This document shows positions 24,860 to 48,533 of a stretch of 64,000 bases of DNA, one piece after another. A model generated the notes under the pieces. That model saw only the letters and a list, made by a program, of their open reading frames with translations. It was not told the origin of the DNA and did not search any database. Position 1 is the stretch's first letter. Every line of letters begins with the position of its first letter. The position numbers were made by a program, and so were the translations under genes. The DNA comes from Candidatus Moraniibacteriota bacterium (lineage in GTDB: Bacteria; Patescibacteriota; Minisyncoccia; Moranbacterales; UBA2206), in NCBI GenBank assembly GCA_037137555.1, contig JBAXKA010000002.1:3133-67132 (forward strand), written 5' to 3'.

Positions 24860-24997
24860 ATGAGCGTAACATATAAACCCAAAAGTATAAAGAGAAAAAG
24901 GAGTCATGGCTTTATTGAAAGAAATAGTACTGCTTCTGGCCGAAATGTTTTAAAAGCAAGAAGAAGAAAAGGTCGTGCTAAACTGACAACAGTTTAA
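24860..24997 (+). CDS. rpmH: 50S ribosomal protein L34
   Basis: 45 aa '[45 protein letters not shown]', close to the L34 consensus. It was not in the ORF track because it is under 60 aa. Confidence 0.9.
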
Positions 24998-25021
24998 TTT
25001 TTTAATTTTTAAAATCAGGCA

Positions 25022-25369: not shown

Positions 25370-25370
25370 A

Positions 25371-32189: not shown

Positions 32190-33341
32190 TTAAAGCGTTA
32201 TTTTGTATAGCTTGCCGTCTGTGCGATTAGTAAAAAATAAAAGACTTTCATTGGCGTTAAGAAAAAGTTTTGTGGCATCATATTTGCTGGTGATTTTATT
32301 TAGATCTACAATGCGACTTTTTTCTCCTGTGGTGGTATCTATTTTCCAAAAAGTATCGGCTGTATGAAATTTTTCTTGATCATAATCATTAGGCATGATC
32401 GCAGAAGCAGGAATTTCTCCTGGCAGAGCACAATAAAGCGCTTTATTATTTGCCAACCAAACACATTTTGAAACAAGTGTCGGCAAATCAAGATTGTGAA
32501 ATTCCCCACCATTGGAATTAACAACGGAAAGTTGAATTTTTGTGCCACCTTTGACATCGCTATGACTAACCAGCGCTAGACTTCCATCATTGTTCCAGAG
32601 ATAATTAGCCCCAAAGACGCCTTTTAAAATAATTTTTTCTTCCCCGCCAATTATCGGAGCAGACTTGAAAGCGGTTTCAGAAAAAGCATCTGGTTTATTC
32701 CAAAAAGAAACGAGACTGCTTTTTGGAATTTGAGCGATGGAAATATCCCGAAAAGTAATATCGGCCAGCTTTATCCAATTAGTTCCATCTGGATCAGAAA
32801 TATTAAGTGTTGTTTTTTTGCTAGCCGAGTCAGAATATTTATAGAAAATACGATTATTGCTATCTTGCCAGGCAACTTCATCAACATTATTTTTTAGTGA
32901 AAAATTAGTTAGATCAGTGTAATTGTAATAATAAAGACTAGCTAATCCGGCACGGACGAATTTCGTGATCACTTTGTTTTTATCCGGCGACCACGAAACA
33001 AAAGTAAGTCCAAGCAATTCTTTGTCAGAAAAAGTTCTTTTATTATTGCCATTAAAATCAATTTGATAAACTCGCCCACTATTTTTAGCATAATATTTTA
33101 TGGCTTCTGTTCCATTGGCAAGCGTTGGTGCAAGCACAGCCTCATCTGAAAGCGCCACAATCGCTTCAGTGCTAATTTTTGGCTGAACAGTTGGTAGGAT
33201 AACTACCGGTGCTTCTTTTTTTGGTGTTAGCGGAATTTCTTCGGCTGGAGATTTAAAGGCTAAATTATAAATACCAAAAAATAAAAGAGCAACGCAAAAA
33301 AGCGTGAGAGAAATAAAAAAGATTTTTTTATTTAGTGACAT
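32190..33341 (-). CDS. membrane-anchored exported hypothetical protein
   Basis: N-terminal TM/signal followed by a 340-aa hydrophilic domain. It is the last gene of the minus-strand secretion island. Confidence 0.5.
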   Translation of the reverse strand: MSLNKKIFFISLTLFCVALLFFGIYNLAFKSPAEEIPLTPKKEAPVVILPTVQPKISTEAIVALSDEAVLAPTLANGTEAIKYYAKNSGRVYQIDFNGNNKRTFSDKELLGLTFVSWSPDKNKVITKFVRAGLASLYYYNYTDLTNFSLKNNVDEVAWQDSNNRIFYKYSDSASKKTTLNISDPDGTNWIKLADITFRDISIAQIPKSSLVSFWNKPDAFSETAFKSAPIIGGEEKIILKGVFGANYLWNNDGSLALVSHSDVKGGTKIQLSVVNSNGGEFHNLDLPTLVSKCVWLANNKALYCALPGEIPASAIMPNDYDQEKFHTADTFWKIDTTTGEKSRIVDLNKITSKYDATKLFLNANESLLFFTNRTDGKLYKITL

Positions 33342-33350
33342 AAAACAAAA

Positions 33351-34298
33351 TTAATTATTTTGGCATTTTGTGGTGCTGACATGAATATGATTATATGATA
33401 CTGCTTCATCTTTCCAATATCCAGCCCCAGAATTTTTAGCGGCGGTAATGATGTTGTCAGCGGTCAGTCCTGTTGCAGTAGAAACATCAATTGCTTCAGA
33501 TTTTCCACCAACAGTCCCACCATAATGGCAAGAACTTTTTTTATGATGACAACACTCCGTGCTTGAATCATTAGTGCATTGTTTCCAAGTTGGGTTGTTT
33601 CTGTAACAGTCTACCCCACCACCATTATTATCAGAAACTGAATTGATCATCATTTTATCTCCAAGTAGATTCTTCATTTTTAACATTAATTCTTGCAATT
33701 CAGGAGAGGCATCGTTGCATTGAGCCTTAATGCTAGTTGTTTGAAATTTGAAATCTTCACACTTGAAAGTTGTTGTTGTTGGCGTTGTTGTGGTTGGTAA
33801 TACTCCAGTGGAAGAGCTTGTTGTGGTGCAAGAGAAAGTATGCCAATCTGTTTTTTCAATGCCAAGATCTGTTTTTGCTGAAAATAATGTGATAATAATT
33901 GTGTTAACAATAAGCCAAGCACCCAACATTAAAGCGAAGCCAATCAAAACAGCCCCAACAATGTCTTTGGCTTGTTTGGTGAGTGTTGGGTTACCGGAAG
34001 AAACAATATAAATTATACCTGCAATGGAGATTGCAGTAATAGAAAGAGGAATTAATAAAGTATTCATTGCCCAATCGAGGATGCTCTGAATACCAACAAT
34101 TAAATGACAAAGTGTGCAGGGATCGGTAGTAGTAATTCCACAAGAAACAATACCAGCACTTGCAATTCTTGGCAGAGCAAAGAGAAAAATAAAAATACTA
34201 AAAAATAAAAAGACAAATTTATTGAGGCTAATTTTTTTAAACATAATATTTTTTTTAGGTTTTTTAACTATTTTGGAAAAGTTTTTCCGTTGGGACAA
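33351..34298 (-). CDS. pilin-like (TrbC/VirB2-type helical hairpin) protein fused to a Thr-rich linker and a Cys-rich LAS/M15-like peptidase-like domain
   Basis: Signal/TM, then 'AISIAGIIYIVSSGNPTLTKQAKDIVGAVLIGFALMLGAWLIV', paralogous to the hairpin in 34732..35622. The C-terminus has 'SCHYGG...SEAIDV' and 'NHIHVS' (H...D, HxH). Confidence 0.5.
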   Translation of the reverse strand: MSQRKNFSKIVKKPKKNIMFKKISLNKFVFLFFSIFIFLFALPRIASAGIVSCGITTTDPCTLCHLIVGIQSILDWAMNTLLIPLSITAISIAGIIYIVSSGNPTLTKQAKDIVGAVLIGFALMLGAWLIVNTIIITLFSAKTDLGIEKTDWHTFSCTTTSSSTGVLPTTTTPTTTTFKCEDFKFQTTSIKAQCNDASPELQELMLKMKNLLGDKMMINSVSDNNGGGVDCYRNNPTWKQCTNDSSTECCHHKKSSCHYGGTVGGKSEAIDVSTATGLTADNIITAAKNSGAGYWKDEAVSYNHIHVSTTKCQNN

Positions 34299-34708
34299 AA
34301 ACTGAGACGATAATTTATTCCGGAGGCATTTTCATTCACATCAAATGGCACACCCAGAGAAACTTTTAATTTACAGGCATCTGCTTGGCTTATATTTAAG
34401 GTGGTTAATAAATCTTTTTCTGCCATGTCTCTGGCTAATTGAATATCAGTATTAAGTATAGCAATAATAAATCCCTGATCTTGCGGATAGTAATCAATGG
34501 AGTAATTAGCATTTTCTTTAAAATTGACACCACTCAATGAAAGCGGTTTTTTATTTGGAAGCGTGGCGGGATTGATAATAGAAACTTTTCCTGTTGGTGT
34601 TTTGATGGTTAGCTGGTTGCTATTTTTTGAAAAAATAAAATAAAAAATTAAAATTAATAATAATCCGCCAAACGAGATAAACAAAATTTTAGCTGTTTTT
34701 GTGTGCAT
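34268..34708 (-). CDS. small exported hypothetical protein
   Basis: N-terminal TM/signal, 146 aa, inside the island. Confidence 0.45.
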   Translation of the reverse strand: MHTKTAKILFISFGGLLLILIFYFIFSKNSNQLTIKTPTGKVSIINPATLPNKKPLSLSGVNFKENANYSIDYYPQDQGFIIAILNTDIQLARDMAEKDLLTTLNISQADACKLKVSLGVPFDVNENASGINYRLSFCPNGKTFPK

Positions 34709-34731
34709 ATTGTTTTTTTAAAAAAAAATGA

Positions 34732-35622
34732 TTATTTGGGAAATCCGCACTTACTATTTGCTCCCCATGGCCCCCATTTTGCTCCATTATTAGAAAGCTT
34801 ACAGGCTGTTTGAATATTGCAAGCAGCGGTTGTGGCAGCGGTTACGCAACTTGCATAATTTGATTTTTGAGTACAATTATGATTAGCATTCTTACCGCCA
34901 GTATACATTGGTGCTGCGGCAGAAGTGGCACAGGTTGTTGTTGGACAGGAACTGCCACTAAGATTATGAGCAGAAAGATTTATTTGAAATAAACCAAGAG
35001 AAACAGGAAAATTATCAGGTTGACATTTGTCTCCACTTTGCTTGCTTTCTTTTCCAGAGCTTTCTCCCATACAAATCGCCGAAGCCATTGCAGCATTGTC
35101 ACCAAAGCAAGTTTTTCTAAGATTTTCAATAGAGCATGGTCCGGAAGCGGCTGGTTCGCATTTTCCTGTTCCGCTAGTGCTGCCACTGCCACTCCCGCTC
35201 CCACTACTTCCACCGGTGCTTCCACCACTACTGCTTTGTGGCAACGAAATACCTACAATATTAACCAATTCAGGATTGATAGTATAAAGAAGCACATACG
35301 AAGTGAGTGCAAGGATTAAGCCAGCAATAGCATCAAAAATAATTCCTTTAGCTTTTCCTGTGGCACTGGTATTTCCGGCACTGGTAATATACATAAAAGC
35401 ACCAACAGAAATCATCAACATCGCCGAGATGCCAACTGTCCACAAACCAAATTTATAAATTGTTAAAATATATAACTCATAGGAATCCGGCCGACCAAAT
35501 CCAGGAATTTCTTCCATTGGGGAATACTTATAAGCATCCACTGCTAATACTAAAAGAGGACTAAAAAGCAACACAAAGAAAAGTGCGATGGTTGCGATTT
35601 TTTGTTTTAGTTTAAAATTCAT
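34732..35622 (-). CDS. pilin-like (TrbC/VirB2-type helical hairpin) protein fused to a Gly/Ser linker and a Cys-rich lysozyme-like/lytic-transglycosylase-like domain
   Basis: 'MISVGAFMYITSAGNTSATGKAKGIIFDAIAGLILALTSYVLLY' hairpin. The C-terminus has 'MGESSG....VSLGLFQIN', resembling the SLT ES...GLMQI motifs. Confidence 0.5.
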   Translation of the reverse strand: MNFKLKQKIATIALFFVLLFSPLLVLAVDAYKYSPMEEIPGFGRPDSYELYILTIYKFGLWTVGISAMLMISVGAFMYITSAGNTSATGKAKGIIFDAIAGLILALTSYVLLYTINPELVNIVGISLPQSSSGGSTGGSSGSGSGSGSTSGTGKCEPAASGPCSIENLRKTCFGDNAAMASAICMGESSGKESKQSGDKCQPDNFPVSLGLFQINLSAHNLSGSSCPTTTCATSAAAPMYTGGKNANHNCTQKSNYASCVTAATTAACNIQTACKLSNNGAKWGPWGANSKCGFPK

Positions 35623-38581
35623 TGGTGTTTGTTTTGGGTAAAATAAAAAAAATAATTTTTATGGCAAGAATAATGGCGAAGCCGGAAAGAACAATGCGGA
35701 AAAGAAAAGCGATATAGTTGGGAATGCCGGAAGAAACAGTGGCAAAAATTTTCTTGGAAGAAGTTTCTTTTTGAGCTAGTGGAGCAATATCCGTCATTTC
35801 AATTTCAATATTGTGTGTCAGCTTCTTCTCATAGAATTCATTATAACTGATATTCCAATATTTGTTAAGTTGTTTTCTTATGGGATTTTCTGCTTTATAG
35901 ATAGTGGCAAAAGAAATAAGATATTTTTCGCCACTTTCTTTGGGCGGAAGGGTTAATTTTCCATAATTTTGTGTGTCGATTTTATAGCCATAAGTTGTGG
36001 CATTGTCGGCATTAATGATTACGCCGTCAATATTCCATTGATAGGGACAAGTAGATAGCCCATCTTCCTTGTCGGCATCACCATCATTATTATCACCATT
36101 AGTAAATTCTTTTTTTGCCGCTGTTCCTGAAAAATCTGGAGTTAGAACGATATCATAGCCCACTAAGGCTTGAAATTTTATTTCACTGCGATCTTCATAG
36201 TATTTGTTATCAAAATCCTGGTAGTCGCCTAGTTTAATGCCCCTGCAAGTTTGATTGCCGGAAGCATCTTTATTGTCAGTGTCCGTGGCTTTTGTGCTAT
36301 CATATTTTGGCACAATTTTTACTTCAGGAACGGTAATCTGAAAAACTTTTGTTAATTCAATTCTTTTGCCGGTTTCTTTATTGAGTGCGGACAACCCGAT
36401 CGTATATTTGTCGCCGATACCTTTGAGAATTGGAAAATAAGTGCGGTTTGTGGATTTTCCAATGTTGTCAGTAGTAGTAGTGCCATCATCAATGCATTTT
36501 TCGAATTGTTGATCTGGGCAAACTTGAGTAGCGCCATCGAGCGTCCAAAGAAACTCAGTGTATTTTTCTGTGCCAGTATTATCAAAAACTACTCCAATCA
36601 TTTCATCTTTTGCGACTTCGCAAACAGCTGCTTGTGGAAATGTTAAAGTAATTTTTCCGTCAGCGTCTTTCGTTGGAAGTGTAGTGAGGCATCTTTCTCC
36701 CGCTAGTTCGCCATCGTAGGTGCTTTCGGCTGATGGTTTTGGTGCTAGGTAAATAATTTCTGGTTCATTCGGATCTTTCGTTTTATATACTGCTGTGGCT
36801 GTATAAACCCTGAGTGTTTCCGTGGAAGAAGATATTGACAGTGTTACATCGGCATGTCCTTCTCGTTCACCACCTTCCGAAAGTGTTTCCTTGGCGGTTA
36901 CTTTTATTTTAAGATATTTTGGCAGTTTGTCTGTAGTTGTGATATCTTCAAAATCATCATCCTTAAAATTAAGATTAAATTTAAGCGTAGTTACGCCTAG
37001 TCCGGACATTTGCGTGGCGCTAATATCTTTTGGTATTTCTTTAAGTGCTATCCAATTGTCTGGATCAGCTGGATCTTCGCCAGCAAAAATTTCCCAAGTA
37101 TAATTAAGGGCATTTTCATTGGTGGGATTAGTTGTCGACGAGGTGAAAGTTACTTCATCACCGTTTTTGCTGTCGCTTGTATCATTGATGGGATTTTCTG
37201 GCAAATATTTCAGTGAGACATCTAGTTTTTCAGTTGTGCCACCACCTTCGGAAGGAGAAACAAGATTGCTTTCAAGGCAAGCATTTAAATCATTATCATC
37301 CATGCCTGTTGATCTGATTGTTATATTAGTATCGGAGCCTGTGCAGGTATATGTGGCACCGTCTTCATTTATTGTTCCGCCCTGAGTATATGTGCTTGTT
37401 GGGCAGGTTGAAGTATAATTGAATAAATCTGGTGGAATGATGGTGGTTATGAGCGTGGCCGGGTTAGTGTAGGACACAACGGTTTTAGTGATGGTCATTG
37501 TTCGGAGCATAATATTGTCATTGATTTTTGTGTCAGGAAGGGTTTTTTGCGTGGTAGTAGTTGTAACAGTGGAAGTATAGTTTGTTTCTGAGTGTTGGGT
37601 TGGTGGTGTTCCGTCTGTGTGCGTGTTTAGAAAAACTTGTGTTGTTGGACCAATTATTTTTGGATAACCAGTAGAAGGATCCATGTCCTTTGGTTCGCAA
37701 GTATTTTTGCTAAATGCCCACATTGTTCTGTATGATGAATCTGGCTCTTGGGTTGGTTGAATGGCGGCACCTTCCACAACAACACCAACTTGATCTCCAG
37801 CCGTAAAAGGAAAAGTGATTGTGTTTGCACCGAGTCCGGCAACATTAGCTTCGTCAGTATTTCCAGTGCTGGCAGTATCTTTGTTATTGGGATTAGTATG
37901 CCAAAACTGTTCTTCACTAAGACTAAATTTACCATTCGATCCGCCAGTTGTATCTCCGGGTGCATTAGGAAAAAGATGCTTGCACTCTTTTAGTTCATAG
38001 TCATCACCAGTTTTAACATTGTGCACAAAACAGTGCTCTGGTTTTCCTCGTTGATCATCACCACCAAAAACTGCTTTATAACCATCATCATCAGTATCTG
38101 CTTTATACACATCTGCTGGCGGTTGCCAAACAAAATCATCATTAGCGAGAATGCGGGCGGCTCTAACTTTATAATCTTCGATATCAACTTTGCCATTACC
38201 ATCTGAATCACATTTCGCTTTGTCCTCAGGGCAAGCGGCACCTTTAATATACCAAGTAAAATAAAGATTTTCAGTGGTGTTGATGAAATAGGTTGGCATG
38301 GCAGTGACGGTGACTTTTTCTCCCGGGACGGGATCAGCAGGATCGAAGGTGAGTGAAACCATTGGAGGATTTATTTTTCTCCTCGCAACATTAATGGTTT
38401 TCATGGTGTTTTTTAACTCATTTTTATCAACACCCAGATCGCTCATAACTGAATCTGTTACTTCGGTAGGATTTGCTAGTGAAAAAAGAGCAGCATAGGC
38501 AGGTAAGGCTGTAAGTGAGAAAATATTTAAAATAACCAAGCAGGTGATGATTATTTTTTTTAATTTTTTTTTAATTTTCAT
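35612..38581 (-). CDS. large (989 aa) Thr-rich surface protein with signal peptide and C-terminal TM anchor
   Basis: N-terminal 'LTALPAYA' signal, a Ca-binding-like 'DSDGNGKVDIEDYK', long Thr/Asn-rich segments and a C-terminal hydrophobic anchor. Confidence 0.6.
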   Translation of the reverse strand: MKIKKKLKKIIITCLVILNIFSLTALPAYAALFSLANPTEVTDSVMSDLGVDKNELKNTMKTINVARRKINPPMVSLTFDPADPVPGEKVTVTAMPTYFINTTENLYFTWYIKGAACPEDKAKCDSDGNGKVDIEDYKVRAARILANDDFVWQPPADVYKADTDDDGYKAVFGGDDQRGKPEHCFVHNVKTGDDYELKECKHLFPNAPGDTTGGSNGKFSLSEEQFWHTNPNNKDTASTGNTDEANVAGLGANTITFPFTAGDQVGVVVEGAAIQPTQEPDSSYRTMWAFSKNTCEPKDMDPSTGYPKIIGPTTQVFLNTHTDGTPPTQHSETNYTSTVTTTTTQKTLPDTKINDNIMLRTMTITKTVVSYTNPATLITTIIPPDLFNYTSTCPTSTYTQGGTINEDGATYTCTGSDTNITIRSTGMDDNDLNACLESNLVSPSEGGGTTEKLDVSLKYLPENPINDTSDSKNGDEVTFTSSTTNPTNENALNYTWEIFAGEDPADPDNWIALKEIPKDISATQMSGLGVTTLKFNLNFKDDDFEDITTTDKLPKYLKIKVTAKETLSEGGEREGHADVTLSISSSTETLRVYTATAVYKTKDPNEPEIIYLAPKPSAESTYDGELAGERCLTTLPTKDADGKITLTFPQAAVCEVAKDEMIGVVFDNTGTEKYTEFLWTLDGATQVCPDQQFEKCIDDGTTTTDNIGKSTNRTYFPILKGIGDKYTIGLSALNKETGKRIELTKVFQITVPEVKIVPKYDSTKATDTDNKDASGNQTCRGIKLGDYQDFDNKYYEDRSEIKFQALVGYDIVLTPDFSGTAAKKEFTNGDNNDGDADKEDGLSTCPYQWNIDGVIINADNATTYGYKIDTQNYGKLTLPPKESGEKYLISFATIYKAENPIRKQLNKYWNISYNEFYEKKLTHNIEIEMTDIAPLAQKETSSKKIFATVSSGIPNYIAFLFRIVLSGFAIILAIKIIFFILPKTNTNEF

Positions 38582-39249
38582 CGCGTAAGATAAATAATAT
38601 AACTATCCAAAATTATTATAGCAAAAATACTCATAAAATACGAATAGAAAAATGATTTTGTTTTGTAGGCGAGAAATCCGGCTGTGACGGAAAGCAAAAT
38701 GAAGGGAGCGGATTGCCAAGAAAAAGCATTTGTGAGAAAAAGTGTAGCAAGAAATAAGCTTGTTTGAGCGGAAATTGCCAAAGAAGCTATTTTTTTTTGA
38801 AAAAGTGAAAGAATAAAACCTTGAAAAAAATAACTAAAAATAAAAATACTTAAATTGACAATAAATAATTCATAAACTAAAAATAACCAGAAATTGTTTT
38901 TGATATAATTTGGCAAAACATAAACAGTATTGAAATCTGTATAATTAAGCATTAAATAAAAAAGCAAAAGAGTGAAGAAAAAAGTGCCTATTCCCCAGAT
39001 CAAGCCAATTGATTTATTTTTTAGATTCCAGCCAAAATCAGCCAGCTTTTTTTGGAGAATGATTTTTGTGTAAGCCACTGGCAGAAGAATAAGAAAAAAT
39101 AAATTAGCCGTTATTTTTTGGGCGGAATTTTGGGTGGGAAAAACAAGACTAAAAAAAAGGCAAAGGGCAATCACGCCAAGACTAACCAAAAATTCTCGGT
39201 CAAGCCAAGAAAGTTTTTGTTTTTTTTGTGGGTAGATTGGTTGATACAT
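38578..39249 (-). CDS. polytopic membrane protein, hypothetical
   Basis: About 6 TM helices, inside the island. Confidence 0.45.
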   Translation of the reverse strand: MYQPIYPQKKQKLSWLDREFLVSLGVIALCLFFSLVFPTQNSAQKITANLFFLILLPVAYTKIILQKKLADFGWNLKNKSIGLIWGIGTFFFTLLLFYLMLNYTDFNTVYVLPNYIKNNFWLFLVYELFIVNLSIFIFSYFFQGFILSLFQKKIASLAISAQTSLFLATLFLTNAFSWQSAPFILLSVTAGFLAYKTKSFFYSYFMSIFAIIILDSYIIYLTR

Positions 39250-39258
39250 GTGGTTTTT

Positions 39259-39795: not shown

Positions 39796-39806
39796 AAGGT
39801 TTAATT

Positions 39807-41657
39807 TTAAGCTTGCTCTTCTTCGCTAAATTCTTTTTTGGCTTTTTCAATATCCAAAAGTTGTGATGGATCGGTGGTGATGATTTGATCTTCAGAATAG
39901 GACGCCACAACTTTAATCGCAACATGATTTGTGCCAGCGAAAAAAATACCTTCGCCAACATTACTTTCTAGGAGCAAAAATTTCTCTTGATCAGTCAAAT
40001 AGAAAGTATCGGAAATAACATCAATACCGGCTGGAGATTGTTTTAATAATAATTGCAAAGAAGAATTGGTCACAATTGCTTTGCCATAACGAGAAGACAA
40101 AAAGTCATTAACATCTTGCGTAATAGTTGTGAGGCCAGTGAAATATTTGCGACAACGCTTAGCAAGACCAAACAAAAATGAAGCGGCGTCTTCATATTTC
40201 ATCATAACCCAAGCTTCATCAACCAGAACAATGCGTTTTTTTACATTAGTGCGCATTTCATTCCAAACAAATTGTAGGATAATATACATCGCCACTGGAC
40301 GCAATTCTTCTTCCATATCGCGGATATTAAAAACAACGAGCTGGTTATCAACTTTAATGTTTGTGGCGTGATTGAGAAAGCCAGCAAAAATTCCTTCCGT
40401 ATATTTTTCCAAACGAACTGCTAAAACTTCTCCGCCGTCCAGACTACGCAAAACTTGATAGAGATCAGACATTGTGGGAAAAGCATCTTTTCCCAGTGTG
40501 TTGAAATCGGCTTCGGCTGTTATGTCTTTGATGCTGTATGTTTCATGAATAGCCCGATCCAAAACAGAATCTTCTTCTGGTGTAATTGATCCGAGCATAA
40601 TATGCAAAAGTCCCAAAAGATTGGCAATATTATTACGCAATATATCTTCCGGATCGTCATCTTCACCAACGCGAGGAAGATCAAAAGGATTGAGATGGCT
40701 GTTGGAATTGAGTGAAATTTTAATAAAAGTGCCTTCGATCGTCTCGCAAAGATGTTTATATTCATTTTCCGGATCAATAATAATCACATCAGTGCCGATC
40801 ATAATTGAACGCAAAACTTCCAGCTTGACAGTATAACTTTTTCCAGCACCAGATTTAGCAAAAACAACCATGTTGGCATTTTCCATTTGAAAACGATCAA
40901 AAATAATCAAACTATTATTGTGGCGATTGACGCCATATAAAATTCCCGTGTTAGATGAAAGCGTCGATGAAACAAACGGAAAGGTTGTGGAAAGTGGAGA
41001 ACTATTCATATTCATTCCCACATCTAATTCGTCATTAGCGAGAGGCAAACAAGAATTAAAACCTTGTTCGGATTTAAAAACGGCTGGTTTGACATAGATC
41101 AATTGAGCTTCAAGAATGGCTTCGATGCTTTTGATGCTTTTCGTTACGGCCTGTTCACTGTCGCCATAAGCGGTGATATAAAGTGAAAAACGAAAGAATT
41201 TTTCTGTGCCTTGTTGCAACTTATCTCGCAGTTCATCAATATCTTGTTGGGCAGTTTCCAAAGAAGGATCACGAATTAAACCTTTGCTTTGTTCGATTTG
41301 GATTTGCGATTCAACTTGCGTAGCACTTTTTTTGAGCGTTTTCAAGATATCATAAGTATCCACTGGATGGATAAACATAGAAATATCAATTGGCATATCA
41401 ATATTGATGATTGGAGAAAACCAATTGCTGTGCAAATATCTCGGATAAGCAATAATAAAAATTGTTTGGGCGATTGTTTCCCCGATGCGAATGGATTTTG
41501 GCATAATTTGAATGGCAGCGGGAGCAATAATATCATTGAGTCTGGCAAGGCCTTCTTGATAATATTTTTCTGATTCCAAAACGCTATCTTGCGGAGGAGC
41601 AATTTTTTTTTCCGAAGCGATATCAGTCGCATCTTTTTTGGCGAAAGGGTTGAGCAT
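39807..41657 (-). CDS. virB4: VirB4/TrbE/CagE-like type IV secretion ATPase, ATPase portion
   Basis: Walker A 'FAKSGAGKSYTV', Walker B-like 'RIVLVDEAW' and overall VirB4 C-terminal domain architecture. Confidence 0.8.
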   Translation of the reverse strand: MLNPFAKKDATDIASEKKIAPPQDSVLESEKYYQEGLARLNDIIAPAAIQIMPKSIRIGETIAQTIFIIAYPRYLHSNWFSPIINIDMPIDISMFIHPVDTYDILKTLKKSATQVESQIQIEQSKGLIRDPSLETAQQDIDELRDKLQQGTEKFFRFSLYITAYGDSEQAVTKSIKSIEAILEAQLIYVKPAVFKSEQGFNSCLPLANDELDVGMNMNSSPLSTTFPFVSSTLSSNTGILYGVNRHNNSLIIFDRFQMENANMVVFAKSGAGKSYTVKLEVLRSIMIGTDVIIIDPENEYKHLCETIEGTFIKISLNSNSHLNPFDLPRVGEDDDPEDILRNNIANLLGLLHIMLGSITPEEDSVLDRAIHETYSIKDITAEADFNTLGKDAFPTMSDLYQVLRSLDGGEVLAVRLEKYTEGIFAGFLNHATNIKVDNQLVVFNIRDMEEELRPVAMYIILQFVWNEMRTNVKKRIVLVDEAWVMMKYEDAASFLFGLAKRCRKYFTGLTTITQDVNDFLSSRYGKAIVTNSSLQLLLKQSPAGIDVISDTFYLTDQEKFLLLESNVGEGIFFAGTNHVAIKVVASYSEDQIITTDPSQLLDIEKAKKEFSEEEQA

Positions 41658-41682
41658 ATTTTTAAGCTTATTTTTTTTAAAT

Positions 41683-42369
41683 TTATTTTAGTTCCATTTT
41701 TTCTGTGTCGATATAGCCCTTAGTATCAAAGACTGTTGGGTTATAGGCATTGAATAATAATTCAATCAATTCTGGTGTTTTGAGTGGGGCGATGCGAACT
41801 CCAATGCCAGAAAGTCCGGCCGTGAGATGATCAACTCTTTGAAAAATTTGGCTCTTGTAGGTTTCAAAATTTTCTCTTTTTTCTAGAATATTTCTCTTGG
41901 GATTGAGCATGCTGGAAAAATTACTGAAAAAACTTTTTTCTTGATTTTCAATTGGAGCAAATGGCACAACTAAATAAAAAGTTTTGTCCATAATGTCAGA
42001 CATAGAAACCAATTGAGTGATAAAATTTTTATATTCAGAAATTTGCAAACGCATCAATTCGGTTTTTTGTTGTTTTTCTTTTTCGGTTAAAAACTCCACA
42101 TAAGAATCAATATTTAATTTTCGTGAGCTGATGAGGATTTGCAGGGGAAAATCAACCGAGTTGAGAAAATTTTGATATTGACTAATGATGGCTTCTTGTT
42201 CGTCAGTCGCTTTCAATTCAAAATTGATAGCAGAAACTTCCAGCACCGCCCGTAGCGATCCATTTTTGAGAACAATTACATCTTCTTTGACTTCCGCGAC
42301 ATCCAAATATTGTTGTGTTGGTGAAGCGGCTGCTTGTTTGGCGAGTTTTTGTGAATAAAGTTTTTCCAT
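41683..42369 (-). CDS. VirB4-like N-terminal domain encoded as a separate ORF
   Basis: 'VIVLKNGSLRAVLEVSAINFELKATDEQEAI' resembles the VirB4/TraC N-terminal region. It ends 25 nt upstream of the ATPase ORF, in a different frame. Confidence 0.55.
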   Translation of the reverse strand: MEKLYSQKLAKQAAASPTQQYLDVAEVKEDVIVLKNGSLRAVLEVSAINFELKATDEQEAIISQYQNFLNSVDFPLQILISSRKLNIDSYVEFLTEKEKQQKTELMRLQISEYKNFITQLVSMSDIMDKTFYLVVPFAPIENQEKSFFSNFSSMLNPKRNILEKRENFETYKSQIFQRVDHLTAGLSGIGVRIAPLKTPELIELLFNAYNPTVFDTKGYIDTEKMELK

Positions 42370-42373
42370 AGTT

Positions 42374-42769
42374 TTATTTTAGTCTTGTGTCTAATAATTT
42401 GGAAACATCAGCGACTCGTTGTGAATCAAATCGCTTTTTTTCAATTACAGGTATTGAAACTTGTTTGACGGCATCTCGTTGAATTTTTTCTGGTGTGCGA
42501 TGCCAAAGATATCTTTTTGGTCGAGTGGCAAACATAACAGATGAAATAATAAATTTAATCAGTGGTTGATTGTATGGTCGATAAAAAGCCAGTGAGCCAA
42601 AAATTAAACCAACAATGATAGCGGAAATAACAAAAGCGGATTGATCAAAAAGTCCATAGCAGAATAATAAAATAACGGCTCCGGCTGCGAGCCAGCCGAG
42701 TTGTTTGGCGGTGAGTGGTCCGACAATTTTATCTTCAATATCAATAAATTGGGGAACGCTGAAGATCAT
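42374..42769 (-). CDS. PrgI/VirB3-like small membrane protein
   Basis: 'IVGPLTAKQLGWLAAGAV' followed by two TM helices, positioned immediately upstream of VirB4 as in Gram-positive T4SS. Confidence 0.6.
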   Translation of the reverse strand: MIFSVPQFIDIEDKIVGPLTAKQLGWLAAGAVILLFCYGLFDQSAFVISAIIVGLIFGSLAFYRPYNQPLIKFIISSVMFATRPKRYLWHRTPEKIQRDAVKQVSIPVIEKKRFDSQRVADVSKLLDTRLK

Positions 42770-42793
42770 AAGCTTTATTTAAAAAATATTTTT

Positions 42794-44008
42794 TTATTCC
42801 TCTCTTAAGTCTAACACATTTTTGGGAACTTGTCTCGGAGCAGAATAATTTATGCGAGCAACTGGCAAGCGGGAGGGATAATTTTTTTGAATTGGTTGGA
42901 TTGTTTGCGGAATTTCCGGTGGTTTTTCAGTGGATAATGTTTGCGGTGAAGAAAAATGAATGTTGCTGGTGGTGTTTTCAATTTTGTTTTCAGCTATATT
43001 TTTATTTTCCAGTATTTCTTTTTGGGGCAAGTCTCTTCTCCAGGCACTGATGCGATCTTCATCAGATTGAAATTTTTGTTGTGGTTGAGAAACTTTTTGG
43101 GTGGGATAATAATTTTCTTGACCGCGTCGGATTTCGGCTGGTTCCAGTTCATTATTGCGAAAATTAGGTCTAAATGGCGGTCTTTTTAGTGCTTGTGGTT
43201 GAGCAATAACTTTTTTTTCTGGCAAACTAAAAAGGACTTGTTTGGTGACAGTATTCACTGTGAGCGGAATATTATTTTCAAGAGAATCAATAATAATAGT
43301 TAATTTTTCACGATCAGTTTCTGAAAGTGTGCGAGTGTTTTCATTTTTGAAAAGATAATTTCCTCGCACGATTGGATCGTGGTTGCTGATGCCAACAGTA
43401 AAAGTGTAATCAGAAAGCCAATTTTTAATCGATGGTCGCACTGGTTCAGGAAAAATTTTCAATTTAATGTGTGCCGAAGTGATCAACTGTTCACCAAGCG
43501 CCGCATATTTTTCGATAGCGATTGAGATGGGGAGTTTTTCGAGTTGAGCTTGTTGTTTTTTTAATGTTTCTTCTTCTTTTCTTCGTTCTTGTGCTTTTTC
43601 TTTTTCTTCTTCCATGATCCATGGTTCTAATTCTAGAACTTTTTTCCACGCTTCATCTTCAGAAAGTAACGGAGCTGATTTTTTCTTTGACCATTCTTCG
43701 AGCAAGCCTTGTGCATCTTTGAAAAAATCGGGAAAACGAGCATAAATTCGATTGTTTATTTCATACGAAATACCAAAAATAATTTGCTCGGCTTGTTTCA
43801 AGTCTTTGGCGATTATTGCTGGATAATCTTTTAGTTTTATTTCGTCGATGAAAATAAGGGCGATTGGACTAGACAAAAAAGCAACAAAATTTTCTTCTAG
43901 CCCATACATAAAACAAACTTTTTCAACTTCAAAATACGGGATATCTGATGAAAGAAAATCTTGTAATATTTTCGGCAGTTTACTTTTTTTCTCTAAATAA
44001 TTATTCAT
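42794..44008 (-). CDS. hypothetical protein (coiled-coil, Gln/Pro-rich C-terminus)
   Basis: 404 aa, no TM helix, Lys/Glu-rich central region. Confidence 0.45.
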   Translation of the reverse strand: MNNYLEKKSKLPKILQDFLSSDIPYFEVEKVCFMYGLEENFVAFLSSPIALIFIDEIKLKDYPAIIAKDLKQAEQIIFGISYEINNRIYARFPDFFKDAQGLLEEWSKKKSAPLLSEDEAWKKVLELEPWIMEEEKEKAQERRKEEETLKKQQAQLEKLPISIAIEKYAALGEQLITSAHIKLKIFPEPVRPSIKNWLSDYTFTVGISNHDPIVRGNYLFKNENTRTLSETDREKLTIIIDSLENNIPLTVNTVTKQVLFSLPEKKVIAQPQALKRPPFRPNFRNNELEPAEIRRGQENYYPTQKVSQPQQKFQSDEDRISAWRRDLPQKEILENKNIAENKIENTTSNIHFSSPQTLSTEKPPEIPQTIQPIQKNYPSRLPVARINYSAPRQVPKNVLDLREE

Positions 44009-44028
44009 TGTAGATGTGAAAAAAATAA

Positions 44029-46299
44029 TTAGGTCCTATGGCGTAGGTCTGGATCCCCGTTCGCTCTTGCAAGATTTTTTGCCCCTCTTGTTCCAGCATT
44101 AGGATTAGCTAATGCAGTGGCGTTAGTTCTTATGGCAGTAAATAATGCAGATTGAGCTACTCCATCGTTGGCATTAATAATATCTTTTATTTTACTAGGA
44201 TCTAGATTGTTGGCGAACTCAGCCATTAGACCTGCATTGTTGGTTGTGGTTGTATCCATTCTTTTTGCTGTATCACCATTAAATCTTTGCATGAGATAAG
44301 CCCTCGTGGCAACATCATTTGCGCTATTAGAGGAAATACCAGCATGAAATGTTCCGGTTTGAGCAAAATGTGCTGTTTGAACTCTTGTGGCTGTTTGAAG
44401 CTGATCATCAAGAGCTAGCCATGCAGCACTTCCTTTTGTTTCTAAATTTCTCAATGCATTGATTCCCGAGATATTTTGTAGGTCAGGAGCGCTGGCTGCG
44501 TTGTCAAGAGAAGCGGCGATCGCTCTTGTATAAGCAGGGCCTTTCTTCCTTGCTTTTTCCAAGTCATCGTTACTAAGAGCTCCAGTTCTAAGTCCAATAT
44601 CCATTACCCTATCGTTTCTAAGTGCATCAGCACCTAATTTATCAGGATTAAAATTGTCGCTTTGCATGTAGCGCGTTAATCCTGCTTCATCAAGAACGCC
44701 ATTGTGCGTGAAAACAGCTTCAGGGGCAGAGGCCTTCATTTTGCTTTCTAATTGCCTAGTTACTTGACTGTCATTGCCAAATTGTTGACGCACATTATTC
44801 AATTGTGCTCCTGTTGCTAAGCCTCTTGCTGCGAGTTCTATTGTAGCAGCTGCTCTTTCAAATTTATTTCCTGATGTAGCCAATAGCTCCAAGTCTAAAT
44901 CTTCTGCTGTTGCGACAGCATTTTGCTCTCCTGCCTTTTTCATTTTTGCTGCTTGATCAGATTCATACCGCAATCTCGCATCTGTCCCACCAATAATTTT
45001 TCCTCGCAAGCGATCTTGTTGACTTCCCAAATTTCCGCCAAGTTTATTTGCCCAAGAATCTTCTTTGGCTTTGGCTCTTCTTGAGCTATAAGCTTTGTGA
45101 GTGTCTTTGATAAATTGTCCACCACTCACTTTCATACCAACATTCTTCATCAACTTCGTCCCCGCACCCACCACCGCTTTCGCCCCATGAATTCCCGACT
45201 CTTGTGCTTTGATGATGCCGAGCCAAAGAATGATGATTGGGATTGCGAAAAAAGAAGCGGAGGCAATAAATTTTCCAAGCGTATCTCCGAAACCACCTTG
45301 ACCAGCAACGGTTTGTAGTCCAGCTATTTTTTTCATACTTCCGCCGGAATCAGAAATGGCTATAATCATTTGCGTGGCAACATAAAGCATAAAAACCATA
45401 ATCGGCCCGGCGAAACATTGTTGCATAAAATCTTTCCACCATTTGCTTCCAGCTTCAGCTAATGCTGTGCCGGGTAGAATTGATCCTACAAAAGCAATTG
45501 GGGAAAAAATAACATAAACAGCAAGCGTGATTGTTCGGATAACCAAGAGAACAGCAATGATGAGTAGTGTGATAGCGAAAATAAAAGTAAAAATAACTAC
45601 AGACAAAAGAAAAAGAGTATCCGTATTTTCGGTGGTAGGTGCAAAAATTTGATCAAGACCGCTCGCATCAATAATTGTCATAAAAGAATTTGATCCGCCG
45701 ATTTTTCCGAGGAAGCCATACATCATCATATTTGATGCATCAATAATAAAACGGGCAATGGGATAGCTGAAATTGACAAGCAGTGCCATGATGACAAGAT
45801 TGAGTAAAACTTTTTTGTAATTAAAGTTGGCAGCGGATTGAAAAATTGTAGCAAAGGCGGAAAACAAAAGCACCATAATAAAAGCGACATTAAAAACATC
45901 GCGAACGGTGCGCCATATTTGATAGATAATTTTATTGTCAATCACCGCCTTCATATTAGTTGGATTGACAATCCATTGAAATATTGTTTCAGCTAGTGAA
46001 AGAAGAAAGCCCGTGAATTTTAGTGCCAGCTTGAGAATTGGAATGATAATATATTTTTCTCCCCATGTTACTGACGAATCACCAGCAATCTCCGTATTTG
46101 TTTTTATTTGCTCAGGGGCTGTTGATCCGAGTTCTGCAGATGAATTGTCTCCAGAAAAAACATTAGCAGAAATTATCTTGGTGGAACTTATAAACGGCAA
46201 AATAAACGCAACAAAAAAAATCGCTAACAAAATTGTTTGTTTGTTTTTTTGAAAAAAAGTATTAACCTTTTTTTGTTTTAGCTTTGAGAAAAAAAACAT
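44029..46299 (-). CDS. VirB6/TrbL-like polytopic membrane protein with long C-terminal hydrophilic extension
   Basis: Signal/TM, then at least 6 TM helices, then a ~330-aa Ala/Gln/Asn-rich tail. It lies next to VirB3/VirB4-like genes. Confidence 0.5.
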   Translation of the reverse strand: MFFFSKLKQKKVNTFFQKNKQTILLAIFFVAFILPFISSTKIISANVFSGDNSSAELGSTAPEQIKTNTEIAGDSSVTWGEKYIIIPILKLALKFTGFLLSLAETIFQWIVNPTNMKAVIDNKIIYQIWRTVRDVFNVAFIMVLLFSAFATIFQSAANFNYKKVLLNLVIMALLVNFSYPIARFIIDASNMMMYGFLGKIGGSNSFMTIIDASGLDQIFAPTTENTDTLFLLSVVIFTFIFAITLLIIAVLLVIRTITLAVYVIFSPIAFVGSILPGTALAEAGSKWWKDFMQQCFAGPIMVFMLYVATQMIIAISDSGGSMKKIAGLQTVAGQGGFGDTLGKFIASASFFAIPIIILWLGIIKAQESGIHGAKAVVGAGTKLMKNVGMKVSGGQFIKDTHKAYSSRRAKAKEDSWANKLGGNLGSQQDRLRGKIIGGTDARLRYESDQAAKMKKAGEQNAVATAEDLDLELLATSGNKFERAAATIELAARGLATGAQLNNVRQQFGNDSQVTRQLESKMKASAPEAVFTHNGVLDEAGLTRYMQSDNFNPDKLGADALRNDRVMDIGLRTGALSNDDLEKARKKGPAYTRAIAASLDNAASAPDLQNISGINALRNLETKGSAAWLALDDQLQTATRVQTAHFAQTGTFHAGISSNSANDVATRAYLMQRFNGDTAKRMDTTTTNNAGLMAEFANNLDPSKIKDIINANDGVAQSALFTAIRTNATALANPNAGTRGAKNLARANGDPDLRHRT

Positions 46300-46301
46300 A
46301 A

Positions 46302-47327
46302 TTATTTTTTATATAATGCACCTGGGCCATAAGCGTTGACTTTTTTGTTGACTTGATTAACGGCTTTGTCTGTTACTTTATTAACTTCTTTGTTGATTTT
46401 ATTTTCTACACCAGAAATTGTTTTGTTCACGGCTCCGGCAATGGCCTTGGAAACAGTGGCAGCCACTAATTCGCCAATACTTGTGGCACTGGAAATGGCT
46501 AGGTTTGGTAGATTCTCCATATTTGCTTCCATTTCTTTATATAATATACCAGGCTTTGCGATCATGCCGTCGATTTTTTCACTAAGAAATCCTCCACCAG
46601 CAATACCTTCAGCTGTGGCTGTGGCTTTTTCCTTGGCAAGAGCTGTGTTGTATTCTGCTCTGATAGCTGAATCGGCATCCCAGATTGTATTGCCTCCATT
46701 GCCATCACCCATTAAGTAGAGATTCATATTGGCAAGCGAATCACTTTGAAACATTTCAGCTGGATCTCCGTCGTAACTTAATCGCCATTCTTTTGGTTCA
46801 GTTATATTTTCTCCCAATGTTTGAATATTTTCAGAGAGACTGCTACTGGTAATGTCAGCTGCATCATCGCCCAAGACAGCGCCTCTGCCAAAACCTTCAC
46901 CGGCAATGGTGCTGGCGCCGAGGACAGAATTAGAGGCTTTTTTATAATTAACACTACCTCTGCCAGAAGTAAGGCGACTAATATAGTCGTTGGCATAGTT
47001 TGTGGCATTTCTTTTAGGATTATTGACCAAATAATCTTCCCAGTTGGTAATAAATCTGGCGCCATTGCCACCGACACCGGAAATAAAACGATCCATTTGT
47101 TTGGAAAGCATTTTGATGGCGGCTTGTTTCAATGATCCCATCATCATGCCCTTGATTGAATAGGAAATTTCTGCTACGACTGTTTCATAGACAGAAGCAG
47201 CCATTGCATCCCAGGCTTGAGCTTTTTTAGGACAGGAAAAAGAAAATAAGATTAATAAAAAAATAAAAAAACCAGAAATAATTTTTTGGGAAAAATAAAC
47301 TTTTTGTTTTAGTGGGTTTTTTTGCAT
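46302..47327 (-). CDS. exported hypothetical protein
   Basis: Signal peptide. The C-terminus has a repetitive 'VNK..' region. Confidence 0.45.
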   Translation of the reverse strand: MQKNPLKQKVYFSQKIISGFFIFLLILFSFSCPKKAQAWDAMAASVYETVVAEISYSIKGMMMGSLKQAAIKMLSKQMDRFISGVGGNGARFITNWEDYLVNNPKRNATNYANDYISRLTSGRGSVNYKKASNSVLGASTIAGEGFGRGAVLGDDAADITSSSLSENIQTLGENITEPKEWRLSYDGDPAEMFQSDSLANMNLYLMGDGNGGNTIWDADSAIRAEYNTALAKEKATATAEGIAGGGFLSEKIDGMIAKPGILYKEMEANMENLPNLAISSATSIGELVAATVSKAIAGAVNKTISGVENKINKEVNKVTDKAVNQVNKKVNAYGPGALYKK

Positions 47328-47343
47328 GAAATTTTGTGTTTTG

Positions 47344-48456
47344 CTATGGGGTTGTTGTTTCTGTTGTCGTTGTTGCTGTTGTGTTGGTTGTTTGCAGTGC
47401 TTCTAGTTCGCTTAAATCTTTTGGTGCGTTGATGCCATAACTTTTTAATTTATTTTGGACTGTTTCGTCATAAGTTAAACCATATTCGGCTATTTTACTT
47501 TGGGCTTCGGTGGCAAAATCACTAAAAATAGTAATGAAGCCTTGCAATTTGGAAAGATTAGCAATGTCGCCCATCGGATCATCACCTTTAGATTGAAAAA
47601 GTGTGCCAATATTTGCAGTATAGAGTGCAAAGCGCAAGGCCTTTTTGTGAATTGCTAGAAAATCTTCTGGCACTTCCACCGCCATTAATTGTTCAACGAT
47701 CTTTTTTTGACTAGCGACAAGATCTTTTAATCCAGAAGCACTTTGTGTTGTGATGGCCGTTGTGATTATGGAAGTGATGTTGGAAAGCATGCCAGATGCA
47801 TCTGTGATTGAGGTGATTGGTTTTGGCGAATTGCTGGTGAAAATATAAGTTACGGCGGCAATATAATCCAAGAAATCTTCTTTCTTTTTGGCTTTGGCTT
47901 TTTCTTCGCTGAGCTTGCTATAATTTTGTTTTTTTATTTTTATGGCTGATTCGTCAATCTCAGGCAGATCACTTTCAGAAATTATACTGGGAGACATAGC
48001 TTGATCGATGGTTGCTTGCAAATCGTCTAGTGAAATTGGTTTTCCGTCAGCATTGGATTTGTCGGTCAGTTCGGCTAATTTTTGAGCAACATCTTCAGTG
48101 AGATTTTTTTCTGAAGAATCGCCAAGCACATCACTAATATTTTCTGCATTTACTGGTGCGGAAATTGCGTTTGATGCTGGCGTCTGAATAAGTTTGTCGC
48201 CTGGTGCTTTTTTTAGGGGGTCGTAACCACTACGAACTTCCGTTCCATCAGAATAGCCATCGCCATCAGTATCGGGATTGGCCGGATTGGTGCCATAAAT
48301 TTTTTCTTCTTCATCAGACAAACCATCTTGATCACTATCAAGAAAAATACTTTTTGTTGTTGTATTTTCAGCGCCAACATAAAAAGCAAAACTGGAAAGA
48401 ATCAAGCTCGAAAGAATGAAAAAAGCAAAGTTGATATTTTTTATTTTCATATACAA
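47344..48456 (-). CDS. exported protein with thrombospondin type-3-like Ca-binding repeats
   Basis: Signal peptide followed by 'DSDQDGLSDEEEKIYGTNPANPDTDGDGYSDGTE'. Confidence 0.55.
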   Translation of the reverse strand: MYMKIKNINFAFFILSSLILSSFAFYVGAENTTTKSIFLDSDQDGLSDEEEKIYGTNPANPDTDGDGYSDGTEVRSGYDPLKKAPGDKLIQTPASNAISAPVNAENISDVLGDSSEKNLTEDVAQKLAELTDKSNADGKPISLDDLQATIDQAMSPSIISESDLPEIDESAIKIKKQNYSKLSEEKAKAKKKEDFLDYIAAVTYIFTSNSPKPITSITDASGMLSNITSIITTAITTQSASGLKDLVASQKKIVEQLMAVEVPEDFLAIHKKALRFALYTANIGTLFQSKGDDPMGDIANLSKLQGFITIFSDFATEAQSKIAEYGLTYDETVQNKLKSYGINAPKDLSELEALQTTNTTATTTTETTTP

Positions 48457-48533
48457 AAATTATAGCACACTAAGTGTTAAGTTGTGAAGAGCTGAGTGCT
48501 TTATTTTTTTGGGCATTTGGGTATAATTAAGTT

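Follow-up and report, generated by a model that had tools for sequence, protein, structure and literature searches.

A 64-kb stretch of Candidatus Moraniibacteriota DNA (contig JBAXKA010000002.1; the whole stretch is called the window below) contains an island of 14 consecutive open reading frames (ORFs) on the minus strand, between positions 32190 and 48456, with the features of a type IV secretion system (T4SS). We named the genes g1 to g14 from low to high coordinate; all are read from the minus strand, with g14 the first gene of the unit and g1 the last. An island of this extent had been proposed in a sequence-only reading of the window, and each of its 14 ORFs was recovered in place. Because neighbouring genes are separated by no more than 25 nt or overlap slightly, a single operon-like unit running from g14 to g1 is plausible. 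The ORFs are real genes, as up to 80 related genomes carry homologues arranged in the same order. Locus counts given below refer to the loci of the 80 best VirB4 relatives, which are 67-94% identical to the VirB4 of the island.

The best sigma-70-like site of the region, TTCACA-18-TG-TATAAT (48459..48488, minus strand), sits immediately upstream of g14 and has an extended -10 element; it is a consensus match only, with 11 of 12 positions matched. The predicted -10 element stops 9 nt short of the probable ATG of g14 (48450-48488, minus strand), which suggests that g14 is leaderless or nearly so. The likely true starts of g14 and g2 are ATG 48450 and ATG 34244, respectively. At the other end of the unit, g1 converges with a plus-strand O-antigen-ligase-like gene, Wzy2, across a gap of 6 nt.

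Genes of the island and their predicted products

The center of the island is formed by three genes that correspond, in the order g10-g9-g8, to trsC-trsD-trsE of the pGO1/pSK41-type systems. The product of g8 (39807..41657) matches the Pfam families P-loop_TraG (1e-30), AAA_10, and the C-terminal part of TraC_F_IV, and both its Walker A (AKSGAGKS) and Walker B (IVLVDE) motifs are intact. Its best relative in the PDB is 4ag5, the VirB4 of the monoderm Thermoanaerobacter (3e-51, compared to 4e-4 for TrwK of R388), and direct comparison with prototypes gave 8e-48 for PrgJ of pCF10 and 1e-46 for TrsE of pSK41, compared to 5e-8 for TrwK. By these motifs and matches, g8 is predicted to be a catalytically intact VirB4 of the monoderm (MPF_FATA-like) type that is closest to monoderm VirB4s, in agreement with its previous description as a VirB4/TrbE-like ATPase of Gram-positive type.

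The protein encoded by g9 (41683..42369) matches NCBIfam TrsD (NF041427) at 6e-8 and VirB4 N-terminal regions at 6e-9 to 1e-4, with NCBIfam scores that are all far below the curated whole-protein cut-offs. It also matches TrsD of pSK41 (blastp 1e-5; hidden Markov model 2.7e-6). A gene for this protein is found beside virB4 in 78 of the 80 loci and always encodes about 228 amino acids (aa). From its sequence, we identify g9 as TrsD-like, a homologue of the VirB4 N-terminal domain that stands alone, as is typical of pGO1/pSK41-type systems. The possibility that g9 and g8 are a single frameshifted VirB4 was ruled out, as the split is kept in 77 loci and fits TrsD and TrsE. Upstream of g9, g10 (42374..42769) encodes a small VirB3-like membrane protein of the PrgI/TrsC type with two transmembrane (TM) helices. 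It matches Pfam PrgI (PF12666) at 1.3e-9 (38.9 bits, above the gathering score of 27) and TrsC of pSK41 at a blastp E value of 5e-3, and it was found in 75 of the 80 loci. The proposal that a PrgI/VirB3-like gene lies directly upstream of virB4 thus holds for the identity of the gene, which passed the profile search, but not for its position, as g9 lies between the two. The TrsD-like protein had been overlooked in the sequence-only reading, as had the enzyme domains fused to the pilin modules of the island.

The component corresponding to VirB6 is less readily recognized. The protein encoded by g12 (44029..46299) is predicted to have approximately 8 TM helices followed by an all-alpha, ARM/HEAT-like C-terminal tail of approximately 390 aa, which is predicted to be cytoplasmic by the positive-inside rule. 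Neither Pfam nor NCBIfam matches g12 itself, and a sequence-profile search of the PDB was also empty. Among 38 members of its family, three weakly match TrbL (PF04610), the best at 1.5e-5 and 25.3 bits compared to a gathering score of 25.9. PF19590, probably TrbL_3, is also listed as a putative match for relatives of g12. The family profile matches TrsL of pSK41, which is annotated as a TrbL family protein, with an hhalign E value of 1e-3, the second best of 420 profile-to-prototype pairs. The AlphaFold2 (AF2) model of g12 (predicted local distance difference test, pLDDT, 78) is a helical membrane bundle for which Foldseek returned VirB6 of R388 (TrwI, 7o3v_J) with a probability of 1.00, a target-normalised TM-score of 0.52, and an E value of 0.27; the tail resembles armadillo repeats in the same search. 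We accept g12 as an extended VirB6-like protein on this family and predicted-fold evidence, with support below curated thresholds. The previous assignment of g12 as VirB6/TrbL-like therefore passes the profile-search test only indirectly, through family members and predicted fold, and the length of approximately 330 aa given for its hydrophilic tail is to be replaced by approximately 390 aa.

Between the PrgI-like and VirB6-like genes, 60 of the 80 loci carry g11 (42794..44008), which encodes a soluble cytoplasmic protein without TM helices. A conserved core at about residues 145-290 contains an invariant P..NW..G..N..L..F pattern and is followed by a proline-rich tail with a conserved C-terminal NVVNLKE-like motif. 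The family comprises 782 representatives at 50% clustering. Searches with g11 and its family profile yielded no relative in Pfam, NCBIfam, or the PDB, and g11 is thus an orphan from an uncharacterised family.

Two genes near the end of the unit encode VirB2-like pilin modules fused to domains of the kind that degrade cell walls. The product of g4 (34732..35622) carries a C-terminal SLT-type lysozyme-like domain that matches SLT_3 at 7.7e-9 (36.3 bits, above the gathering score of 27; 1e-9 for the domain alone) and has the catalytic ES motif at residue 187 and GLFQI at residue 210, as in lytic transglycosylases. The product of g2 (33351..34244) ends instead in a cysteine-rich domain whose family profile retrieved only Hedgehog N-domains among its top 23 PDB matches (E 0.008). 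Because the zinc ligands H..D..HxH of these structures align with g2 residues H258, D271, H304, and H306, which are invariant in the family alignment, we assign this domain a LAS (Hedgehog/DD-peptidase-type) zinc-peptidase-like fold. One relative matches HH_signal. In both proteins, the pilin module is predicted to consist of a signal peptide and two hydrophobic helices. Scores against T4SS_pilin (PF18895) were 19.2 bits (1.3e-3) for g2 and 16.5 bits for g4, both below the gathering score of 26.6; 67 of the 73 proteins in the pilin family of g2 and g4 in related loci match PF18895, the best at 1.7e-19. Relatives in this family carry SLT (n=10), SLT_3 (n=6), or other domains, either N- or C-terminal of the pilin module. 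The prediction of two pilin-like proteins is thus upheld by family membership and not by the proteins' own scores, and it had missed the fused muralytic domains.

The remaining genes encode exported or membrane proteins. The largest product is the 989-aa protein of g5 (35612..38581), for which a signal peptide, an array of immunoglobulin (Ig)-like domains, and a C-terminal TM anchor are predicted, as expected for the surface protein described previously. Its AF2 model (pLDDT 74) is an array of Ig-like beta-sandwich domains, and Foldseek matched Ig-like arrays such as NCAM, S-layer proteins, the Ig domains of PrgB (8beg), and SiiE with E values of 1e-8 to 1e-6 and low TM-scores. Homologues of g5 are limited to Moranbacteria/Parcubacteria; neither Pfam nor NCBIfam matched g5, its homologues carry no Pfam domain, and a single-sequence search of the PDB was empty. 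On this model, g5 is a candidate for an adhesin or for a scaffold outside the cell. The first gene of the unit, g14 (47344..48456), encodes an exported protein with an N-terminal hydrophobic segment, two thrombospondin type 3 (TSP3) calcium-binding repeats, and a helical region. The match to TSP3_bac (4e-15; 55.7 bits, gathering score 25) bears out its naming as a TSP3-repeat protein, and it occupies the same position in 35 loci. The last gene, g1 (32190..33341), encodes an N-terminally anchored or exported protein predicted to form a TolB-like beta-propeller. It has no Pfam or NCBIfam match itself, and when its family profile was searched against the PDB, the top 12 matches were TolB (best E 6e-4), with TolB propellers the only structures found. 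This gene is at the same position in 31-32 loci.

Adjacent to the VirB6-like gene, g13 (46302..47327) encodes an exported or N-terminally anchored protein of 341 aa with an N-terminal hydrophobic segment; it is conserved upstream of g12 in 34-35 loci and has no match in Pfam, NCBIfam, or the PDB. On the other side of the core, the small membrane protein g7 (39259..39795; 3-4 TM helices, charged termini) lies directly downstream of virB4 in 46-49 loci, and the polytopic membrane protein g6 (38578..39249; 6-7 TM helices) is present in 57-60 loci. No significant family match was found for g7, and no match for g6, in Pfam or NCBIfam. A CPBP protease identity for g6 was ruled out, as the protein contains no histidines and no motif residues. 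The small N-terminally anchored exported protein g3 (34268..34708) is poorly conserved, being present in only 7 loci, and has no Pfam or NCBIfam match. In the comparison with prototypes, a VirB8, VirB5, or PrgF-type partner could not be assigned to g3, g7, or g13.

Conservation and chromosomal setting

The relevance of the island to an episymbiotic lifestyle had been made conditional on the organism belonging to the candidate phyla radiation (CPR). Relatives of its VirB4 with 67-94% identity are found in metagenome-assembled genomes (MAGs) named Candidatus Moraniibacteriota, Moranbacteria, Parcubacteria, or Patescibacteria, and the product of g2 is 100% identical to NCBI WCK16_00575 from a Candidatus Moraniibacteriota MAG. 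All 80 of the best genomic relatives have CPR/Patescibacteria MAG titles or titles that are uninformative or probably mislabelled. This identity listing agrees with a place of the island's VirB4 inside the monophyletic Patescibacteria VirB4 clade but is not a phylogenetic test. By its VirB4 relatives and the identity of g2, the organism is a Candidatus Moraniibacteriota and thus belongs to the CPR.

A synteny check showed the locus and its flanks to be collinear across approximately 40 Moranbacteria genomes with 74-94% VirB4 identity, in the order ksgA-UbiA-g14-g13-g12-g11-g10-g9-g8-g7-g6-g5-g4-(g3)-g2-g1-Wzy2-Wzy1-GT2. The core g12-g11-g10-g9-g8-g6-g5 is kept down to 67% VirB4 identity. Median identity is 75% for VirB4, compared to 30-50% for the exported proteins. 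The fixed order across genomes, together with the much stronger conservation of VirB4 than of the exported proteins, indicates that the locus is an old, vertically inherited, and selected part of the chromosome rather than an integrated element. A different arrangement was seen in one subclade (L042-L058), where pilin-pilin-g10-g9-g8-g7 is followed by comM-G5-ksgA; a VirB6-like gene is not adjacent in these loci, and in L052 a match was found approximately 9 kb downstream of virB4.

The island differs only mildly from the rest of the window in composition (GC content 0.375 compared to 0.341; GC at third codon positions, GC3, 0.296 compared to 0.267; correlation of relative synonymous codon usage, r, 0.92), and the differences in GC and GC3 stay within one standard deviation of gene-to-gene variation. 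A recent horizontal transfer of the island was ruled out by composition and synteny.

Genes for mobility were sought in the window and in a further 3.2 kb to its left on the matching contig. The window has 58 larger ORFs, and the Pfam scan, which covered 53 of them (all but five short ones), found no VirD4, relaxase, or integrase domain, as the sequence-only reading had claimed; none of the three was present among the genes called in the 3.2 kb further left, where a cassette of this kind might have made the island an ordinary conjugative element. No relaxase domain occurs in the scanned ORFs of these regions, and no search for an oriT was made. For a coupling ATPase of the VirD4/TcpA type, the only similarity in the window was a weak one between g8 and TrsK (E 0.1). 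The window contains no tRNA genes and no Rfam matches, and att-like flanking repeats were not found, the only repeats being AT-rich and imperfect.

The surroundings of the island are those of a housekeeping region of the chromosome. To the left lie isoprenoid genes, a tandem PilB-type ATPase, ruvABC, an ATP-grasp cluster, a penicillin-binding protein, and dciA, and also dnaN, dnaA, rpmH, rnpA, yidC, jag, and a polysaccharide cluster; to the right lie UbiA, ksgA, a G5/DPBB protein, a ComM-like ATPase, lspA, PNPase, and UvrD. The dnaN-dnaA spacer holds two perfect DnaA boxes (23034 and 23087), which, with rpmH (24860-24997) upstream of rnpA, mark a probable oriC region at 22971-25022 and place the start of the island approximately 9 kb from the probable origin. 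DnaA-box-like 9-mers are more common than expected across the window as a whole (32 compared to 17). The housekeeping flanks beside oriC and the vertical conservation agree with the claim that the apparatus is chromosomal and not a conjugative element. Taken as a whole, the locus is very probably the resident chromosomal T4SS of Candidatus Moraniibacteriota, of the Patescibacteria type, and not a mobile element.

Several other features of the window are described here for completeness. Between 4 and 12 kb from the T4SS, the minus-strand segments 51966-53492 and 56847-60449 encode the ComM-like Mg-chelatase ATPase, PNPase, and a NYN-domain RNase; these are conserved neighbours in related genomes and are named in a 2026 hypothesis of feeding on host RNA. 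Two minus-strand ORFs of 435 and 303 aa (55455-56762 and 60858-61769) have no Pfam match. On the plus strand, a 1006-aa protein (3216-6236) contains two complete tandem T2SSE (PilB/GspE-type) ATPase domains and an MshEN domain and, by its domains, looks like a fused double motor of a type IV pilus or type II secretion system. The plus-strand segment 9043-11910 encodes an N6/N4 DNA methylase, for which no restriction partner is evident, and then a surface protein of 663 aa that contains three lamin-tail domains and one PKD domain. A membrane protein of the 7TM_transglut family is followed by four ATP-grasp (ATPgrasp_ST/RimK-like) genes, one of them fused to Zn_protease (13981-18856, plus strand); from its gene content, this cluster may be a peptide-ligase or modification system.

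Proposed function and competing explanations

We propose that the island encodes a machine for contact with a host bacterium. VirB4, docked via VirB3 and TrsD to VirB6, would pull pilin modules out of the membrane and drive assembly of a wall-spanning filament or channel at the site of contact between the host and the bacterium. The fused muralytic domains would open the bacterium's own cell wall and probably that of the host as well, and g5, g1, and g14 could stabilise the contact. The resulting conduit or pilus would exchange macromolecules with the host rather than serve conjugation. The essential activity is most likely the assembly of the contact conduit and not substrate export dependent on a type IV coupling protein (T4CP), because no coupling protein accompanies the core and because, in Southlakia, the T4CP homologue is dispensable and the T4SS is essential. 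The suggestion of a non-conjugative cell-contact or pilus machine relevant to episymbiotic CPR life is supported by these results, and the same has been published for Patescibacteria (PMC12102498, PMC10633639). Tubular structures at the parasite-host interface and uptake of host RNA have been reported for a cultivated member of the phylum (bioRxiv 10.64898/2026.06.21.733656). Reviews regard the role of the T4SS as unknown and speculate that it might deliver effectors or take up molecules from the host (PMC11665869, PMC12857230).

Several observations weigh against this proposal. The VirB6-like g12 and the pilin modules of g2 and g4 miss curated Pfam thresholds on their own, and the Foldseek match of g12 to VirB6 has an E value of 0.27 despite its probability of 1.0. 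A VirB8-like component could not be identified in the island. The two helices of the pilin module might do no more than anchor VirB1-like enzymes in the membrane. Nor has a pilus, a channel, or a cargo been demonstrated in any Moranbacterium. Moreover, the searches cover the window and 3.2 kb of a contig of approximately 68.7 kb, and a VirD4-like gene may lie elsewhere in the genome; a survey published in 2025 found VirD4-like homologues in most Patescibacteria, far from virB4 (PMC12102498).

One alternative is that the island is an ordinary integrated conjugative element, or what is left of a plasmid, with its relaxase, coupling protein, and integrase just out of view. The VirB4/TrsD/PrgI triad is indeed homologous to and collinear with conjugative genes of pSK41 and pGO1, and the GC content of the island is slightly above that of its flanks. 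However, this difference, like that in GC3, is within the variation between genes, the same housekeeping flanks and gene order recur in approximately 40 genomes with 74-94% VirB4 identity, and neither the 32 kb to the left (with the additional 3.2 kb) nor the 15.5 kb to the right holds an integrase, relaxase, T4CP, tRNA gene, or att-like repeat. Given also that relaxases were found in just 103 of 3,035 genomes (PMC12102498), this explanation is largely refuted and we consider it very improbable. Among explanations that keep the locus as a resident system, the T4SS and its pilus may pierce the host envelope and import RNA, DNA, or other contents of the host cytoplasm. Such a conduit would feed an organism without nucleotide biosynthesis. 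It would account for muralytic domains on the pilin modules and for a window without a coupling protein to recruit cytoplasmic substrates for export. Uptake has been proposed in the reviews cited above, and the 2026 preprint reports monophyletic VirB4/PNPase clades in addition to host-RNA uptake and interface tubules (bioRxiv 10.64898/2026.06.21.733656). PNPase and a ComM-like gene are no more than 10 kb away, but their presence is ordinary housekeeping synteny, no direct evidence ties a T4SS to uptake in any Patescibacterium, and import has its sole precedent in ComB, a distantly related system. We therefore view import as possible but, on present evidence, rather unlikely.

Alternatively, the apparatus could subvert the host bacterium by injecting proteins into it or placing them on its surface, a role on which others have speculated in the case of Saccharibacteria. 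T4SSs mostly export, Wang et al. suggested in 2023 a capacity for protein export or an alternative one (PMC10633639), and the ARM-like cytoplasmic tail of VirB6, together with g11, could serve as a substrate receptor instead of a T4CP. In contrast, neither the locus nor its immediate neighbourhood yielded candidate effector genes or secretion signals, and the dispensable T4CP homologue and essential T4SS of Southlakia speak against export of this kind. All non-core products of the island have Sec-type N-termini, so they need no T4SS to exit the cytoplasm. Effector export is in our judgment unlikely. It is also conceivable that the VirB4 core inserts or displays pilin-anchored hydrolases and adhesins in an apparatus for adhesion or wall remodelling without any translocation channel. 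The pairing of pilin modules with many different N- or C-terminal extracellular domains fits this explanation, as do the Ig-like, adhesin-like protein, the TolB-like propeller, and the lack of an identified VirB8, T4CP, or VirB11. Yet VirB3 and the VirB6-like channel subunit show strict co-conservation with VirB4, and type IV pili already give adhesion in such organisms (PMC10633639), which makes a purely adhesive role appear quite unlikely. A more specific version of our proposal is that the filament subunits of Moranbacteria are themselves enzymes and that the VirB6 tail and g11 form a cytoplasmic gate that replaces the coupling protein. If so, a polymerised pilus would show muralytic domains along its shaft or at its tip and cut through the host wall. 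Neither the enzyme-bearing pilus nor the gate is stated in the cited literature on Patescibacteria T4SSs, and we offer this version as a speculation that is unlikely to be correct.

Few machines are known to be essential to CPR bacteria in their epibiotic life, and the Patescibacteria T4SS is one of them, by a requirement known only from S. epibionticum (PMC10633639). The island provides a well-resolved example from Moranbacteria (Paceibacteria) with a complete list of 14 genes, and it leaves the current picture unchanged. It illustrates that a VirB6-like component can be missed by sequence profiles yet be recognisable by its fold. The widespread cytoplasmic orphan g11 and the Ig-like g5, which accompany the core, are useful targets for structural and genetic work.

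Comparison with known systems

Comparison of family profiles with single proteins of pCF10, pSK41, and R388 by hhalign gave generally weak matches, of which only g9-TrsD and g12-TrsL stood out. No similarity to the R388 prototypes of VirB8, VirB9, or VirB10 was found in the island, and this monoderm-type CPR organism does not present the VirB2-B10 set, with its VirB7/9/10 outer-membrane core, of a ComB-type MPF_T system.

Functional analogies exist with the Ptl system of Bordetella and the VirB system of Brucella, which also lack a cognate coupling protein and have components or substrates exported by Sec. The likeness is limited to function, as these are diderm MPF_T systems of an unrelated lineage with VirB7/9/10 outer-membrane cores. 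Among monoderm systems, Prg/Pcf of the Enterococcus plasmid pCF10 shares PrgI, a VirB4 (PrgJ), the muralytic enzyme PrgK, and the adhesin PrgB with Ig-like domains. The likeness of g5 to PrgB is one of a generic Ig-like fold and not of homology. In contrast to the island, PrgJ has its own N-terminal domain, PrgH has no detectable similarity to g12, and pCF10 encodes the T4CP PcfC, the relaxase PcfG, and pheromone regulation.

The Trs systems of the Staphylococcus plasmids pGO1 and pSK41, a subclass of MPF_FATA, are closer. They share the trsC-trsD-trsE order, a VirB4 whose N-terminal domain is separate as TrsD, a membrane protein and a cell-wall hydrolase downstream, and a TrbL-family protein. 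However, pSK41 is a conjugative plasmid with a relaxase, a T4CP (TrsK), a topoisomerase, and SSB; its VirB4 is approximately 25% identical to that of the island, it has no large pilin-hydrolase fusions, and it is not chromosomally fixed. In the RefSeq annotation of pSK41, TrsB (25115-25432 of our locus L087) is named "CagC family type IV secretion system protein", that is, VirB2-like. This annotation fits poorly with the idea that pilin genes are missing from Gram-positive T4SSs, and it could be relevant to where the CPR pilins came from.

The closest counterparts are the T4SSs of other Patescibacteria. Quinonero-Coronel et al. (2025; PMC12102498) found VirB4 in 2,417 of 3,035 Patescibacteria assemblies, and most of these VirB4s form a monophyletic clade nested in MPF_FATA that is accompanied by TrsD, PrgI/VirB3, VirB6, and PF18895 pilins. 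A locus of this kind is reported for 2,407 Patescibacteria assemblies. Relaxases are as rare in that survey as noted above, and T4CP homologues are usually encoded at a distance from virB4. The site of the locus in Paceibacteria and Microgenomatia is near dnaA, dnaN, rnpA, and ksgA. The island shares with this clade the clustering of VirB4, TrsD, PrgI/VirB3, and PF18895-type pilins, together with a VirB6-like protein as the candidate fifth component, the absence of a relaxase and of a nearby T4CP, and the chromosomal site. It differs from the survey in that its VirB6-like protein would escape sequence profiles and needs evidence from fold or family, and in that its pilin modules are fused to muralytic domains; the text of the survey describes no pilin-hydrolase fusions. 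Nor does the survey name the conserved partners g5, g6, g7, g11, g13, g14, and g1.

In Southlakia epibionticum ML1, Wang et al. (2023; PMC10633639) described a locus (SEML1_0006-0019) of which nearly all parts are essential for epibiotic growth. Like the island, it adjoins dnaA/dnaN and encodes VirB4 (which matches 4ag6), TrsD, PrgI, PF18895 pilins, a TrbL/VirB6 protein with an ARM-repeat tail, for which g12 is the candidate counterpart, and, downstream of VirB4, lysozyme-like and Hedgehog/DD-peptidase domains. Southlakia belongs to a different class, Saccharimonadia, and has six short stand-alone pilins in a divergent array, an NTF2-like (VirB8-like) protein of a kind that was not identified in the Moranbacteria island, and no equivalents of g11 or g5 by name. 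The wall-degrading activities, which in Saccharibacteria reside on large separate proteins (643 and 1113 aa in Southlakia), are here fused to pilin modules. The Patescibacteria T4SS, a relaxase-less chromosomal system found close to the replication origin in nearly all of these ultra-small bacteria, was described between 2023 and 2025 and is proposed to link such epibionts to host cells, and the island is a further example from Moranbacteria, in which the least-described parts are the pilin-hydrolase fusions, the VirB6 recognized only by fold, the orphan g11, and the Ig-like g5.

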